Of a stretch of DNA of 27,630 bases, positions 17,045 to 26,542 are shown piece by piece. The DNA comes from a virus (taxonomy: Duplodnaviria; Caudoviricetes): positions 1 through 27,630 of the IMG/VR virus record IMGVR_UViG_3300038674_000867. One strand, given 5' to 3'. How positions within the stretch are numbered: the stretch's first letter is position 1; each line of letters opens with the position of its first letter. The notes under the pieces were generated by a model. It was not told the origin of the DNA, did no database searches, and was given only the letters and a program-made list of their open reading frames with translations. A program made the translations under genes and the position numbers.

Positions 17045-17950
17045 TTATACAGCCGCACTAACAATAGCCCCAATAGCCTCGTTTACCGATGGCAACGCAA
17101 CGAAGTAGTTGCGGAAATTAATGAGGTTTTGTTGGGTTTGCGGGTCGGTTTTAGCTTCCGAATAATACATTTTAGTCTTACCGGTAGCTTTACGCGCCAA
17201 TTGTGGAGTAAACACTACCGAAGCCATACGAGCATCAGTACTTGGCAATGCTCCAAAAGACAATTTATTCAATGTTTTCGCATCGAAATAAGGGTTAGCG
17301 ATATACGATCGGATTTCAAAACCAAGTTGACCTTGTACCACACCTGTGCGCCAATCGGTAAGAACCTTGAATAAATCTTTATCTTCCAATAAAAGGTCAT
17401 TCACATGGTCGGGACATAAAACAATACGCATACCCTCAACATCAATTTCAGCGGCGGCATATTTTTCGCGCAAAGTGATAATATCTTCCCAAACCAAGCG
17501 TTTGCGTTTGCCATCAGGGGTAACCTTTCCGGTAGTAACGATAACCGGCGTTTTAGCAGTATTGCTATTAGGCGCAAGTGCGTGAGCCGCTTTTTTCAAT
17601 CGCCAACGAACAATTGCATCAGCGTGCGAGTCTTTTACCTCTTTGATCGTGTCGTACGCCAACGCATACAACTCATCGTCGGTAATAGGAGTTACTTTGG
17701 TTTGATACTTATCCAACACAATAGGCACATTTGTACCTTTAAGTTCTTGCATCGGAATAGGGTAAGTGGTGTTGTTAATCAACACATCGGGTTCTACGCC
17801 AAAGAAAGTGGAGTTAATTACTTGCGTTTCGTCATCGCCGGTTACATACTGCGATTTGTCGGGAATACCGTCCAAAAACGAATCTTTGATAGCCGAATTA
17901 GTTCTTTTGATAACCTCATTCGTCCATACTTCTCTATAAACTGTAGCCAT
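17045..17950 (-). CDS. Major capsid protein
   Basis: 301 aa after the protease/scaffold gene and followed by a terminator; REVWTNEVIK, PDVLINNTTYPI, LDKYQTK motifs of Bacteroidota Mu-like capsids. Confidence 0.8.
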   Translation of the reverse strand: MATVYREVWTNEVIKRTNSAIKDSFLDGIPDKSQYVTGDDETQVINSTFFGVEPDVLINNTTYPIPMQELKGTNVPIVLDKYQTKVTPITDDELYALAYDTIKEVKDSHADAIVRWRLKKAAHALAPNSNTAKTPVIVTTGKVTPDGKRKRLVWEDIITLREKYAAAEIDVEGMRIVLCPDHVNDLLLEDKDLFKVLTDWRTGVVQGQLGFEIRSYIANPYFDAKTLNKLSFGALPSTDARMASVVFTPQLARKATGKTKMYYSEAKTDPQTQQNLINFRNYFVALPSVNEAIGAIVSAAV

Positions 17951-17985
17951 TTTATAAATGATTAAAAATTAATAATTCCGATTAT

Positions 17986-18465
17986 TTATGCCGGATTGCT
18001 GCCGTATTTAGCTTTGTACAATTCGGCAAATTGGGTAGGATTCTCCACTTGCATTTTTTCCAATGCTTTCACATCGTTTTTTTGATAGTAATCCCAATCT
18101 TTGGTTGTACTTTCGCCGCCTTGCGCATCCGGCTTAATCATTTGAGCAATAGGCGTAGGAGTACCCAAACCGCCTAACGCAGTCGCCAACGCATCAATAC
18201 CTGCCGTTTGTCCGATTTTTTCGTAAGTAGCTCGGATGTCCTCTACTTTTTGCCCATTGGTAGCAACAAACTTGTTTGCAGCCTGTGCTTGGTCGAGCAA
18301 TGCTTTAATTTGATTTTCGGTTTTGGCTTTCGCTTCGGCTTCGAGGCGGTCGGCTGTATCTGTAACCGTTTTGAATTTCGCTTGCAATGCAGCAAGCACG
18401 ACAGAATCTTCACTTTCTGCCGTTACGCCTTGCAAAGCAAAGGCGGCAATCAATAAATTCTTCAT
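17986..18465 (-). CDS. Probable internally initiated scaffolding protein (159 aa)
   Basis: In-frame ATG at 18465 (MKNLLIAAFALQG...) preceded by an A/T-rich linker ...AACCAAAATTCAAAATTAACA-ATG. Confidence 0.6.
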   Translation of the reverse strand: MKNLLIAAFALQGVTAESEDSVVLAALQAKFKTVTDTADRLEAEAKAKTENQIKALLDQAQAANKFVATNGQKVEDIRATYEKIGQTAGIDALATALGGLGTPTPIAQMIKPDAQGGESTTKDWDYYQKNDVKALEKMQVENPTQFAELYKAKYGSNPA

Positions 18466-19116
18466 TGTTAATTTTGAATTTTGGTTAATATTATTGTTAT
18501 CCAAACAAGCCGAAAAACGGTTGTAGATTGCTTCTACTCCCAAATTTTCGACAGCGTTTATATCTAAGTTTTTGATGTTTTTTGCCGTTGCCGGAACTAC
18601 CTTTTTGGCAATTCCATAGCGTACCATTTCATCAGCATTAAGCCAATGGTCTTTACCATCAAACCACATTGCTGTTACTCCTTCGGCTGTTAGGTTGGTG
18701 CGTTCGGTAAGGCGTTTAATAAAAGAGCCTTCCATATCGCGCAATAGTTTAGCTGTTTGCAAATGTGCATCGGCATCGCCACCCTCAATGCATGAGGGGC
18801 GGTGAATCATCCCGAAAGCATTATCGGCAATAAAAACATTCTCAATAGCCGGTAAAATGAAACAACCCATACTTGCCGCTACACCATCAATGATTATATT
18901 GATTTTCAATTTAGTGCGTTGCATAGCATTATACATGGCAGTACCCTCTAATACGCTGCCACCGTAGCAGTGCATGCGAATAGTCAACTCTTCGTATTTG
19001 TTCGCTTCTACCATATCCAACAATTCGGTAAAACTGTCGCCATTGGCGTACCAACTACCAATGTTGCCGTATAGTTTGGCTTCGGCGTGTTTCTTATTTA
19101 TTTCTTTAAAAAGCAT
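17986..19116 (-). CDS. ClpP-like head maturation protease with C-terminal scaffold
   Basis: HCYGGSV, IDGVAASMG (catalytic Ser), MIHRP (His), DHWLNADEMVRYGIA. Confidence 0.88.
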   Translation of the reverse strand: MLFKEINKKHAEAKLYGNIGSWYANGDSFTELLDMVEANKYEELTIRMHCYGGSVLEGTAMYNAMQRTKLKINIIIDGVAASMGCFILPAIENVFIADNAFGMIHRPSCIEGGDADAHLQTAKLLRDMEGSFIKRLTERTNLTAEGVTAMWFDGKDHWLNADEMVRYGIAKKVVPATAKNIKNLDINAVENLGVEAIYNRFSACLDNNNINQNSKLTMKNLLIAAFALQGVTAESEDSVVLAALQAKFKTVTDTADRLEAEAKAKTENQIKALLDQAQAANKFVATNGQKVEDIRATYEKIGQTAGIDALATALGGLGTPTPIAQMIKPDAQGGESTTKDWDYYQKNDVKALEKMQVENPTQFAELYKAKYGSNPA

Positions 19117-22019: not shown

Positions 22020-23210
22020 ATGACCCTTAGAGATATTTTTAGACCACGAGCCGAAACCAAACCACAAGAGGCGGCTACAAGTGATATAGTATTGAAACTT
22101 CAACAAGAATTTCAAGACCGTAACCGTAAGGATATACAAAAGTGGCGGCAGTCCATCACGGCTGCCGAAAATCCCGAAGACCCGCGTTGGTTTTTGTTGC
22201 AAGATTTGATTGATGATATTTCGCTTGATGCTCATTTATCATCGGTTAAAGATGTGCGAAAAGCTGCTACGCTGAACCATCGGTTTTATGTAACAGACCG
22301 TAAAACAGGTGCAAAATTTGACGAACAAACCGACTTTTTAAACAATAAGTGGTTTTACGATTTTTTAGATGCAGCATTGGAAGCCATTAATCGGAAGTAT
22401 AGCGTTTTGCAGTTTTTCCGTGTTGGCGATGATGTACGCTTCGATATTATTCCACATCGTAATGTTTGCCCACAAAAAAAGCGTATTTATTTGGAAGTTT
22501 CCGGCTCTACCTTTATCAATTATGCCGAACTGCCTAATGTGATAGAAATTAACCACAGTAGTAAGTTCGGATTAATTAATGATGTTGCACCAAATGTGAT
22601 TTGGAAACGCAACTTAATACAAGCGAATGCCGAATTTTCAGAGCGTTTCGGTATGCCTTTAATTACAGCAACTACATCGAACAAACAAGATGTAGATAGG
22701 ATAGATAAAGCCCTTAAGAATTTAGGCGAAGCCGGTACAGGCGTGCTGCCTACCGGTACGGATATACAGGTACACGCATTAGCCAATGCGGGTAACCCCG
22801 AAAAAGTGTATTTAGAGCCTGCCAAATTCCACGATGAGCAAGTAAGTAAACGCTTTCTTGGCAGTACAACTATGACAGACGAGGGCGCAAATAGAGCGCA
22901 AACCGAAGTACACCAAGCAACGCTTGATGATAAAATTTCATTGGCAGACAAACGAATGATAATGTTTGCGGTAACAAAAGACTTATTTCCATTGTTGCAA
23001 AGTCTTGGTTTCCCTTTTGATAATACAAAAATGGGCTTCCAATTTGACGAAACCGAAGATTTAACCCTTACCGAACAGTGGAAAATTACCAGCGAAGCAC
23101 TAAACAACTACGATTTAGATGAGCAAGAAATTGCCAAAACATTCAATTTACCTATTACAGGCAAAAAAGAGTATAATCCGCTTGGTGGTTTTTCGGGAAA
23201 TTTTCAGTAA
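22020..23210 (+). CDS. Portal protein (Mu gp29/DUF935-like)
   Basis: LDAHLSSV...R, FSERFGMP, SKRFLGSTTMTDEGANRAQTEVH motifs. Confidence 0.9.
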   Translation: MTLRDIFRPRAETKPQEAATSDIVLKLQQEFQDRNRKDIQKWRQSITAAENPEDPRWFLLQDLIDDISLDAHLSSVKDVRKAATLNHRFYVTDRKTGAKFDEQTDFLNNKWFYDFLDAALEAINRKYSVLQFFRVGDDVRFDIIPHRNVCPQKKRIYLEVSGSTFINYAELPNVIEINHSSKFGLINDVAPNVIWKRNLIQANAEFSERFGMPLITATTSNKQDVDRIDKALKNLGEAGTGVLPTGTDIQVHALANAGNPEKVYLEPAKFHDEQVSKRFLGSTTMTDEGANRAQTEVHQATLDDKISLADKRMIMFAVTKDLFPLLQSLGFPFDNTKMGFQFDETEDLTLTEQWKITSEALNNYDLDEQEIAKTFNLPITGKKEYNPLGGFSGNFQ

Positions 23211-23244
23211 GGGAGAAAGCAAAGGCGAAACTTACTCCCTTACT
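23195..23244 (+). promoter_or_regulatory. Candidate -1 ribosomal frameshift signal joining portal to MuF
   Basis: G GGA AAT and A AAT TTT, both in X XXY YYZ phase, followed by the AGTAAGGGAG(23206-15)/CTCCCTTACT(23235-44) stem. Confidence 0.65.
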
Positions 23245-24073
23245 ATACGCCGATATTTGTCCGCGTTGCGCAAGCAATCACGCCGTTGCATTGGACGAAT
23301 TGCCGCCTGAGTATATCAACTTATTAGATAAAGAAACACAACGATTGCTAAACGATGTGTACACAGGGAAAGTGCAAAAAACAGATGCCGAATTATTACA
23401 ACTAATTGCTGATAGTTTCAACGAAAAAGTAAATAAGGCATTTACAGCAAAAGCAAATTACACTACGCCTGATACTGAAATGTTAGATAGGCTTACTCGT
23501 AATGTTTGGCATTTTAGCGGTGCAAAAAATTATCACAATTTGCGTGATTTGACTTTAGCGTTGAAAGATGACAGTGGAAAATTGCGCGAATTTTCTGAGT
23601 GGAAAGATGAGGCATTGAAAATATGTAATACATACAATGTAAAGTGGATGAAAACCGAGTACGATATGGCTATTACAAGCGCACAAAACGCGGCTCGGTG
23701 GGTTGATTTCAAAAAGGAAGCACATATTATACCGCTACTTCAATACCAAACTGTTGGCGATAGTAGTGTGCGAGATAGCCATAGGGTATTAGATGGCATA
23801 ACGAAGCATATTGATGACGCCTTTTGGCGCACACATTACCCCCCAAATGGCTACGGTTGCCGGTGCGAAGCTATACAGTCTGTTGGCGACACAGCAACGC
23901 CCGACCAAGCAACGCCCGAAGTAAATATTCCAATGATGTTCCGCACCAATTTGGCAGACACGGGGCTTATATTTCCATCGAAACACCCATTTTTCAATGG
24001 CATTCCAGATGATGTGCGAAAATCATATAGTAAACAAGTTAATCGACATATTGACCGCATTTGGACGGATTGA
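23201..24073 (+). CDS. MuF (Mu gp30/SPP1 gp7-like) minor head protein, probably entered by frameshift from portal (ORF track uses TTG at 23291)
   Basis: LQYQTVGDSSVRDSHRVLDG...FWRTHYPPNGYGCRC MuF signature. The frame is open from 23177 with no ATG before the TTG at 23291. Confidence 0.85.
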   Translation, partial: FSVREKAKAKLTPLLYADICPRCASNHAVALDELPPEYINLLDKETQRLLNDVYTGKVQKTDAELLQLIADSFNEKVNKAFTAKANYTTPDTEMLDRLTRNVWHFSGAKNYHNLRDLTLALKDDSGKLREFSEWKDEALKICNTYNVKWMKTEYDMAITSAQNAARWVDFKKEAHIIPLLQYQTVGDSSVRDSHRVLDGITKHIDDAFWRTHYPPNGYGCRCEAIQSVGDTATPDQATPEVNIPMMFRTNLADTGLIFPSKHPFFNGIPDDVRKSYSKQVNRHIDRIWTD

Positions 24074-24418
24074 ATAAGCAAGCATATACCGGAGGGCGAC
24101 CACAAAAAAGAATTGGCTAATATCAATACCGGAACTTTAATTGTTTCTCGTAAATCGGCAAAAAACATACTATCTCACTTAGCAGATGCAGACAATAAAC
24201 ATTTGGTTAATCGTCTTTTTAATCATCTTGATAAGTTGAATTTCATAGAGCCTAAGGAATTGGATAAATTAAAAGATAACTATGTAAAAAAACGCAACAG
24301 GGGTGTTACTGGTTATAACTTATATTCGATAGAATTAGAGGGCAAAACTTGGCTTGTAAATACGGAAGTAATCAATGAATGTGAAGAAAAGCTTTATGCT
24401 TTTAGTATTAATCCATAA
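24074..24418 (+). CDS. In-frame C-terminal extension of MuF behind a single UGA; possible BECR/LPD-type nuclease-toxin domain (readthrough or nonsense-disrupted)
   Basis: Same frame as MuF: ...IWTD*ISKHIPEGDHKKELANINTGTLIVSRKSAKNILSH...GYNLYSIELEGKTWLVNTE...KLYAFS; there is no ATG start. Confidence 0.55.
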   Translation: MSKHIPEGDHKKELANINTGTLIVSRKSAKNILSHLADADNKHLVNRLFNHLDKLNFIEPKELDKLKDNYVKKRNRGVTGYNLYSIELEGKTWLVNTEVINECEEKLYAFSINP

Positions 24419-24526: not shown

Positions 24527-26542
24527 ATGTCATCAGGAGTAGCAAAATTACAACTACTGATTGATTTAAAAAACAATCTAAAATCAGGACTTGACGGCGC
24601 AAAAAAGCATGTAGATAAAGCTTGCGGACAAATGCAAGAAAAATTAAATAGTTTCAAAATGGGTAATATAAAAGCATTTGAGGCTATTAAAGAACAAGTT
24701 CCGGGCGTTGGGCAAGCTATTAGTTTGCTAACCAATCCTTATGCTTTGGTTACGGCTGCTGTTTTAGCTTTGGGTGTTGGTATTGTTTCGTGTACCAAGC
24801 GAGCAAATGAATGGCACGAGAAAATGGCTGAAATAAATGTAACTGCCGAACTAAGCAAGGATGAATTAGCTAAACTTTCCAACCAATTACTCGAAATTGG
24901 GGGGCGAAATGTTGCGCCGTTGGAAGAAGTGCCAAAAGCATTCAACCGGATTATCTCGGCAGGTCTTGATGTCAATCAATCATTAGAAGCATTAGAACCA
25001 ACTTTGCGAGCTGCTAAAGCAGGTTTTACAGATATTGAAACAGTTGCATCGGCAGCGGTATCAACTATGATGTCGTCCGGTGAAAATGTAAATAAAGTGT
25101 ACGATGTACTTTTCGCTACTGTAAAAGAGGGTAATGCCGAGTTTAAAGATATTGCGCAGTATTTACCCAAAGTGATACCATTAGCCCGAAATGTAGGGTT
25201 TGCTCTTGACGAAACCGCAGGGGCTTATGCTTCATTAACAGGTAAGTTGAGCACCGAACAATCTACAACCGCATTACAGGGAATTATGCGCGCACTATCA
25301 GACCAACGGACAGCAATTGGCGAAATTGATAAAGAAACAGGCAAATATGTAAGTGGATTTAAAAGTATTGGCGTTGATGTATTTGACCCCGCTACAAAAA
25401 AAATACGCCCGATAGTTGATATTGTAAATGACATCAACAAGCAAATGGCAGGCTTAAGCGATAAAGAGCGTATGCTAAAATTTGACAAATTGGGACTTGA
25501 CCAAATGAGTACGCTTGGTTTTTCTACTTTAATGCAAGATGTAACCGGACTTGAAAAAGCTATAAATGCAACTGTCGGCTCACAAGGAGCATTAGAAAAA
25601 GCCTATGCCGACTCGCTTACACCAATGGAAAGTTGGAAGATTGTGCAAAATCAAATAAAGGTAGAAATGATTAAAATAGGCGAAATATTCTTGCCTATTC
25701 TGTCGGCTATTGGAAAAGGGGCTTTATTTATCATCGAAAATCTTGATATTATCGGTGGCGTACTTGTAGGTTTAGGTACTGCATGGGCTATTTTAAACGC
25801 GAAGATTGTAGCACAAACGATTGCTATGGTTGGCTTAAAAATAGCTACAGTTGCAGTAACTGCGGCACAATGGTTATTTAATGTGGCGGCAAGTGCCAAT
25901 CCTATTGGAATAATTGTGTTGCTTGTAGGTGCGCTTATTGGTGGCTTGGTTGTAGCATATAATAAATTTGACAAATTTAGAGCAATAATAAAAGGTGTTT
26001 GGGAAGTTGTAAAAGGATTTGGCAAAATATTAAAGGATTATGTAATAGATAGAATTAAAGGGCTTTTAAGTGGTCTTGGGGCTATGGGTAGTGCAATAGA
26101 AAAGCTTTTTAATGGAGATTTTTCCGGTGCATGGGATGATGCTAAAAAAGGTGTTGCCGATATGTCAGGCGCAACGGCAGCTAAAAACGCAGCAGACAAA
26201 ACAAAAAATCTAAAAGACAATTTTAATAATGCTTACACTCAAGAAATGGCTAAAGCCAAACTTAAAGAGGAGAAAAGCAATACAGCAGAAGCAGAAACTT
26301 CGCAGACAGAAACAAATCCAAAAGCTACAAGCACAACAACCAACAGTAATAATATTGCTGCTGATGCAAAAGGTATTTCGGGCGGTAGTCAAACAAAAAA
26401 TATTACTATTAATATTGATAGCTTTATTAAAGGCTTCACACCGACACATCAAAGTGTAAACGGTATGAATACTGCCGAACTTGAACGATGGATGACTGAA
26501 ATGTTTTTGAGAGTTGTTCGAAGCGCAGAAACAGCAATGTAA
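24527..26542 (+). CDS. Tail tape measure protein (TP901-like core)
   Basis: 671 aa; ISAGLDVNQSLEALEPTLRAAKAG, DIAQYLPKVIPLARNVG, and ANPIGIIVLLVGALIGGLVVAYNK hydrophobic region. Confidence 0.92.
   Translation: MSSGVAKLQLLIDLKNNLKSGLDGAKKHVDKACGQMQEKLNSFKMGNIKAFEAIKEQVPGVGQAISLLTNPYALVTAAVLALGVGIVSCTKRANEWHEKMAEINVTAELSKDELAKLSNQLLEIGGRNVAPLEEVPKAFNRIISAGLDVNQSLEALEPTLRAAKAGFTDIETVASAAVSTMMSSGENVNKVYDVLFATVKEGNAEFKDIAQYLPKVIPLARNVGFALDETAGAYASLTGKLSTEQSTTALQGIMRALSDQRTAIGEIDKETGKYVSGFKSIGVDVFDPATKKIRPIVDIVNDINKQMAGLSDKERMLKFDKLGLDQMSTLGFSTLMQDVTGLEKAINATVGSQGALEKAYADSLTPMESWKIVQNQIKVEMIKIGEIFLPILSAIGKGALFIIENLDIIGGVLVGLGTAWAILNAKIVAQTIAMVGLKIATVAVTAAQWLFNVAASANPIGIIVLLVGALIGGLVVAYNKFDKFRAIIKGVWEVVKGFGKILKDYVIDRIKGLLSGLGAMGSAIEKLFNGDFSGAWDDAKKGVADMSGATAAKNAADKTKNLKDNFNNAYTQEMAKAKLKEEKSNTAEAETSQTETNPKATSTTTNSNNIAADAKGISGGSQTKNITINIDSFIKGFTPTHQSVNGMNTAELERWMTEMFLRVVRSAETAM

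Follow-up and report, generated by a model that had tools for sequence, protein, structure and literature searches.

Tail assembly chaperone genes of lambda and most long-tailed phages use a -1 frameshift to yield the proteins G and GT (Xu, Hendrix and Duda 2004, cited in PMC6316719, PMC7911831 and PMC2628397). Frameshifting also acts on a virion protein of phage SPP1, where gp17.1 is extended to gp17.1* by a +1 frameshift (PMC6316719). The MuF proteins, which include SPP1 gp7 and Mu gp30, have been described together with the MuF polymorphic toxins (Jamet et al. 2017, PMC5576092). A few copies (1-2) of SPP1 gp7 attach to the portal, and the protein aids infection (PMC6316719, PMC5576092). Static fusions of portal and MuF, with or without a PBECR domain, are also on record (Iyer et al. 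2017, PMC5512222; Microbacterium clusters EA3/5/8 and EB, PMC7302621), and the accessible portions of these two papers make no mention of recoding at the junction. A literature search over mostly open-access text, whose supplements could mention one, likewise returned static fusions and no portal-MuF frameshift. In tailed phages, frameshifts are already documented for tail chaperones and for some capsid and tail subunits; what would be new is a frameshift at the portal, of which we found none described.

The stretch of DNA analysed here, hereafter the window, is 27,630 nt long and is a piece of a Mu-like (transposable) phage. Along its 27.6 kb it carries genes for a transposition protein, terminase, a gp36-like adaptor, portal, MuF, tape measure and neck proteins. 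Almost all named relatives of this phage are located in Bacteroidota genomes, and the sequencing runs containing the window sequence are bioreactor metagenomes. The capsid and Clp-type protease genes (17045-19116, minus strand) run opposite to the terminase-portal-MuF genes. The tape measure gene (24527-26542, plus strand) lies directly behind MuF, far from and opposite to the tail-chaperone gene, and phage fF4 has the same MuF-tape measure order.

The Mu-type portal gene (22020..23210; this and all junction features below are on the plus strand) encodes 396 aa ending in Asn-Phe-Gln and a TAA stop at 23208-10. It belongs to PF06074 (E 8.5e-58; 196.7 bits against a curated cut-off of 23.9) and phrog_113, and the PF06074 profile also matches the solved portals 9khx and 8rka. 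Directly behind it is the reading frame of MuF (23204..24073, 289 codons from the slip site), a member of the MuF1/SPP1 gp7 family PF04233 (E 2e-15; 57.8 bits against a cut-off of 29.6) and of phrog_220. A sequence-only reading of this DNA had proposed that a -1 frameshift joins the two genes, and the elements on which it relied lie where it placed them: the heptamers G GGA AAT (23195-201) and A AAT TTT (23198-204), and an inverted repeat (23206-15/23235-44). The -1 frame is open from 23177, just after a TAA at 23174-76, into the PF04233 homology, and the predicted fusion is 684 aa long, as had been stated, with a computed mass of 78.2 kDa. Among 63 in-phase heptamers in the 8,311 codons of the 37 window genes, the -1 frame stays open furthest at the junction pair (290 and 289 codons), and the next longest, at the tail-chaperone site, has 69. 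The pairing of junction heptamers with long -1 frames is not due to chance.

The comparison set comprises 333 retrieved loci (some contigs twice), giving 334 classified sequences with the window included. These divide into 146 in-frame fusions, 134 split pairs with MuF in the -1 frame, 29 split pairs in the +1 frame and two split in frame; 23 were set aside, 15 without MuF in range and eight with an incomplete portal. Of the sequences, 310 had 200 or more portal residues; grouped at 90% identity inside each class, they formed 148 clusters: 71 split -1, 60 fused, 15 split +1 and two split in the 0 frame. The -1 relationship between portal and MuF, expected if the junction is a frameshift site, is conserved across 134 of the 334 sequences, and the -1 frames of these are mostly 400-510 codons long. 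The 64 signal-bearing split -1 clusters are referred to as class A.

The window's slippery heptamer A_AAU_UUU (23198..23204) has the X XXY YYZ form of -1 frameshift sites, is in phase and ends one codon before the portal stop. A canonical heptamer occurs at exactly this place in 60 of the 71 split -1 clusters, against a background of 75 in 22,414 codons (0.33% per codon); 55 are A_AAU_UUY, four U_UUU_UUC and one G_GGU_UUU. Four further clusters carry a U_UUY tetramer at the heptamer position, and seven of the 71 have neither heptamer nor tetramer there. Asn-Phe-x is the C-terminus of 118 of 120 stand-alone portal homologues, the window's own included. At the junction, Asn-Phe is written A-AAT-TTY in 55 of 55 cases behind eight different preceding amino acids, compared with 10 of 82 Asn-Phe pairs elsewhere in portals; the constraint acts on nucleotides and not on protein. 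Alignment of the junctions of the 71 split -1 clusters thus bears out a conserved slippery motif that is constrained at synonymous positions. Both heptamers named in the sequence-only reading are present, but conservation extends only to A_AAU_UUU; the overlapping alternative G_GGA_AAU (23195..23201), from which the same protein product would be expected, is not conserved, and GGA precedes Asn in five of 55 relatives.

A spacer of 6 nt (23205..23210), consisting of the last portal codon and the stop, separates the heptamer from the predicted stimulator and falls within the 5-9 nt or so at which a 3' stem or pseudoknot follows -1 frameshift heptamers. In stem 1 (23211..23239), 23211-19 pairs with 23231-39 with one mismatch, and in the window copy it can be extended by 23206-10/23240-44. 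The perfect 10-bp stem described earlier as following the heptamer directly is indeed present; its outer 5 bp (23206-10/23240-44), however, fall in the spacer of A_AAU_UUU, and the conserved stem starts at 23211. The window hairpin has a folding energy of -16.3 kcal/mol (z -4.1; 0 of 200 shuffles equally stable). Across class A, 56 of 64 clusters have a strong stem beginning 4-6 nt past the heptamer, against 4.1% of 1,800 random positions. Folding each sequence over 65 nt gives modest z-scores, with a median of -1.5 and values below -2 in 19 of 64.

The stem covaries, as had been predicted for a functional signal. In 43 of the 64 class A sequences, chosen by excluding long-insert and odd subtypes by eye and aligned in a register selected after a slide control (the register differs between rows with a TAA and rows with a TAG stop), two-sided changes occur in 75 cells against 28.9 after shuffling (0 of 500 shuffles), and 72.7% of cells pair against 60.5%. 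The portal stop among the 64 signal-bearing relatives is TAG in 46 and TAA in 18. RNAalifold on the plain MAFFT alignment returned no consensus structure and no pairs. A predicted pseudoknot stem 2 (23224..23251) joins loop positions 23224-27 to 23248-51, with 4 bp in the window. The pairing score between loop and downstream sequence is 12.68 within sequences, compared with 10.97 +/- 0.30 when sequences are cross-paired (maximum 11.83 of 300; n = 60). Better pairing within than across sequences suggests a pseudoknot, and the stimulator of class A is probably one. Rfam covariance models, which cover known frameshift elements, gave 0 matches to the junction at E <= 5. No terminator-like site was found at the stem, and promoter-like matches are at chance level.

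Between the slip site and MuF, the -1 frame is open in all 64 class A clusters. The window's linker in this frame (23204..23290) lies upstream of any start codon and holds a conserved Leu-Tyr pair (23243-48) and a CxxC motif (23258-69), both of which precede the TTG at 23291. Leu-Tyr is kept in 60 of 64 class A clusters through 10 synonymous codon pairs, and CxxC is present in 44 of 64. Upstream of the MuF profile, 33 of 64 class A clusters have no ATG; before the conserved Leu-Tyr, ATG is absent in 51 of 61. The sequence-only reading had claimed that the window frame has no ATG and only the TTG at 23291. An ATG does occur at 23480, although inside the MuF homology, and TTG codons stand 29, 32 and 47 codons after the slip site. 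The frame is thus open and conserved and has no conserved start of its own.

These data bear on the possibility that MuF is a separate protein, begun at a TTG or GTG or by re-initiation after the portal stop, with the stem regulating that start and Asn-Phe being a portal protein motif. The window does hold a TTG at 23291, but it stands, as had been noted, in a context without the A-rich leader of the window's other late genes. Start codons in the signal-bearing clade are scattered, confirming that MuF has no conserved independent start there, and 37 of 61 relatives have no ATG, GTG or TTG before Leu-Tyr. A protein motif, moreover, cannot account for A-AAT codons at every one of the 55 junctions, and a separate MuF leaves the signal inside in-frame fusions (below) unexplained. 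A random frame offset together with a conserved MuF start, which would speak for independent translation, is not what the signal clade displays; it fits another clade, one without the signal. Separate starts do occur among relatives: in a flavobacterial split +1 clade; in phages lotta8-2 and FPSV-S1; and in the four non-Bacteroidota Mu-like phages Villandry, Mushu, martha 12B12 and vB_PeaS-P1, where MuF is encoded separately, starting from an ATG of its own, and the signal is absent in all four. Hankyphage p00 combines U_UUU_UUC and a stem with MuF in the -1 frame, but an in-frame ATG is present where the genes overlap. In a gel-slice mass spectrometry dataset of hankyphage (PMC12135933, S6 Table), the 250-85 kDa slice holds portal and MuF, but proteins as small as Gam and the adaptor turn up in it as well. 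For the signal-bearing junctions, we regard a separately started MuF as very unlikely.

The split +1 flavobacterial clade serves as a natural negative control, having no signal and its own MuF ATG 65-83 nt before the portal stop. This clade was considered as a +1 frameshift and rejected on account of that ATG. In L060-L069, L074, L079, L142, L159 and L162, MuF begins at an ATG of its own, in the +1 frame, and overlaps roughly the final 25 codons of the portal gene. A W-x-x-P-D-Y motif in this clade's portal tail, also found in the linker of fused relatives, suggests that the layout arose by secondary splitting.

A second alternative attributes the frame switch to RNA polymerase, which would add one base by slippage, and not to the ribosome. 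Homopolymers of about 8-9 or more are the usual threshold for transcriptional slippage. Flavobacterial relatives (class C) have an A9-11 run in 31 of 36 cases; the stem is not enriched behind this run (4 of 36 against 4.8%), and run length switches the fused frame. For this flavobacterial A-run class, polymerase slippage is the likelier mechanism. In the window, the runs are only A3 and U4 (A3/T4 in DNA), and the site is phase-locked one codon before the stop with a stem at ribosomal spacing, so that polymerase slippage at this junction is extremely unlikely. Phages fF4 and Peternella_1 have A-runs, and TCUEAP3 has heptamers, all with MuF in the -1 frame. Near-identical Flavobacterium phages differ at the junction run, which is A10 in fused L161 and L057 and A9 in split -1 L334 (fF4) and L165; the difference may be natural length variation or a homopolymer sequencing error.

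Natural in-frame portal-MuF fusions, which the sequence-only reading had suggested looking for, exist among the relatives and bear on the signal. A length-extended search yielded 55 fusions of portal, MuF and PBECR2, 834-910 aa long, and all of the closest 33 have the seam motif [NSP]-F-[NKE] (32 by pattern, the 33rd seen otherwise). In 19 fused clusters, termed class B, a slippery U-run is followed by an immediate stop in the -1 frame (18 TAA, one TGA) and a stem; the one fusion with TGA in place of TAA has thus kept its -1 stop. Five of the 19 have only a U_UUU tetramer. In 16 of the 19, 91.4% of stem cells pair and five pairs have two-sided changes, while stem 2 shows no covariation on the alignment because it is nearly invariant in the fused class. 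Since class B is defined by its own signal features (U-run, -1 stop and stem, with seven false sites far from the junction re-sorted by stem score), an unbiased count has to come from the portal tree. There, a well-supported clade of 84 rows carries the signal throughout: 64 class A, 18 fused (all class B) and two with a class A signal and a downstream indel.

Classes A and B are mixed along the portal tree, with 11 and 10 changes; on the MuF tree, with 3 and 2 changes, they are not (FastTree, with 144 of 148 rows on the MuF tree). Over the final 600 bases of the portal core, fused L021 and split L197 share 91.5% identity, and they have different cassettes behind the same heptamer. From the interleaving and this pair, we infer exchange of MuF cassettes at or just before the slip site. 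Since 16 of the 19 class B clusters belong to one MuF lineage, independent events would be few. The two layouts would give opposite shares of fusion at equal efficiency, so the making of both forms fits better than a low MuF copy number, and selection seems to act for producing both short portal and portal-MuF.

Outside class B, 34 of 41 fused clusters place an in-phase heptamer where the portal core ends in Gly-Lys-Lys, compared with 3 of 64 in class A. Two fused lineages without an A-run have 12-bp stems. Slippage by polymerase or ribosome is plausible in class C and these other fused clusters. Porphyromonas phage007a (L340) is fused and retains a signal like that of hankyphage, and its -1 frame meets a stop after 19 codons. 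Another heptamer, G_GGU_UUU, lies in phase at portal codon 326 of this phage; a structure of -31 kcal/mol follows it, and its -1 frame runs for 66 codons.

The existence of the 55 in-frame fusions also lends itself to a third alternative, in which a once-fused gene was broken by mutation or assembly error and MuF is a pseudogene. Indels behind the signal in two relatives are in keeping with this, as is a premature TGA in the window MuF. This TGA (24071-73) is present in every contig covering the position and cuts off an in-frame LPD3-like C-terminal domain (24074..24418) that is continuous in homologues L126, L163, L168 and L237; it may be a nonsense change or be read through. The window MuF also has a long branch on the tree, and branch and stop together suggest that this copy may be decaying. 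For the family, however, a pseudogene is contradicted by the -1 layout common to 134 of 334 sequences, most with long -1 frames. As for assembly error, the junction is identical, with zero differences, in contigs of three runs (two samples from one study that may itself be the source, hence not independent support), and this letter-for-letter agreement makes an assembly slip unlikely. A broken fusion is scarcely credible as an account of the junction. Atlas look-alikes of the LPD3-like domain have PF18798 in 10-24% of members, which is a lead only. Most class A MuF C-termini carry another ~150-aa domain, neither PBECR2 nor LPD3-like (L001, L004, L011, L013, L094, L103, L110, L113); by eye it resembles a nuclease, and the cassettes are polymorphic.

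Taken with the alternatives, the evidence points to a recoding signal at the portal-MuF junction that is very likely real, and the junction is very probably a programmed -1 frameshift. With a high degree of confidence, based on sequence comparison, the conserved heptamer and stem would make a fraction of ribosomes shift by -1 into MuF, giving a 396-aa portal and a 684-aa fusion. The tRNA-Asn and tRNA-Phe would slip in tandem by -1 on A_AAU_UUU as the ribosome is held up by stem 1, probably in a pseudoknot. The C-terminus of the portal faces the capsid interior. Short and fused forms would co-assemble into a mixed portal ring, and MuF with its C-terminal effector domain would be carried into the head covalently, with no need to bind the portal in a step of its own, as SPP1 gp7 does. 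In relatives with in-frame fusions, shifted ribosomes would meet the immediate stop and yield the short portal, so that both layouts would give two products.

A broader reading, which we consider somewhat more probable than its negation, is that Bacteroidota Mu-like phages deliberately build a mixed ring. Both polarities would serve this end, A-run slippage would be a convergent third route, and the slip site would be the cassette seam that sets the effector dose per virion. As part of the same reading, each swapped MuF-effector cassette would bring its own stimulator and polarity. If real, the frameshift would explain how an internal head protein present in few copies enters the virion together with its effector domain, and would imply portal rings of unequal subunits. 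It would also correct the annotation of many Bacteroidota prophages, in which MuF starts are mis-called and fused 'portals' would also make a short form. The signal occurs in hankyphage, which is widespread in the gut and can be cultured for tests, and the reciprocal layouts make the number of MuF copies that a portal needs or tolerates testable.

As far as the accessible accounts of G/GT go, the junction resembles that system in having an X XXY YYZ heptamer near the end of a late gene and two products with a common N-terminus, made in a set ratio in G/GT. It differs in that the genes are portal and MuF, the products would be virion components, and a reciprocal fused layout exists among relatives; the junction genes are not a tail-chaperone pair between major tail and tape measure genes. 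The window's probable tail-chaperone gene (14934-14587, minus strand) has A_AAA_AAC at its end (14599-14593), followed after 7 nt by a strong stem, and a -1 frame of 69 codons; it is likely a G/GT frameshift with a signal of the kind seen at the portal end. Within MuF, an in-phase A_AAA_AAU (23524-23530) has a stem score of 14 bp and a -1 stop after five codons.

Phage T7 10A/10B is another case of a virion protein extended by frameshifting. Like SPP1 gp17.1/17.1* and T7 10A/10B, the portal would be a structural oligomer in which a fraction of the subunits is lengthened at the C-terminus. In those systems, the extended proteins are tail-tube or capsid subunits with outer domains, whereas here the portal would be extended by an entire internal head protein that includes an effector domain.

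In E. coli, dnaX yields tau and gamma by a -1 frameshift, and Thermus dnaX uses transcriptional slippage on A9. The fused relatives resemble dnaX, in that the long form is in frame, a shift into a near stop gives the short form, and a mixed oligomer would result; in both, the same outcome would be reached by ribosomal or polymerase slippage in different lineages. The difference is that dnaX encodes a cellular clamp loader, and we know of no dnaX lineage with reversed polarity, as in the window.

The static portal-MuF fusions have the same domain order in one chain and are described, in the accessible portions of those reports, as plain gene fusions. MuF polymorphic toxins have an intact toxin domain and a downstream immunity gene; the window MuF is truncated by the TGA, and the next gene is the tape measure. 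Like SPP1 gp7 and Mu gp30, the window has a PF04233 gene directly behind the portal with a variable C-terminal domain. SPP1 gp7 and Mu gp30 are separate proteins, whereas the window MuF would be covalently attached to the portal.
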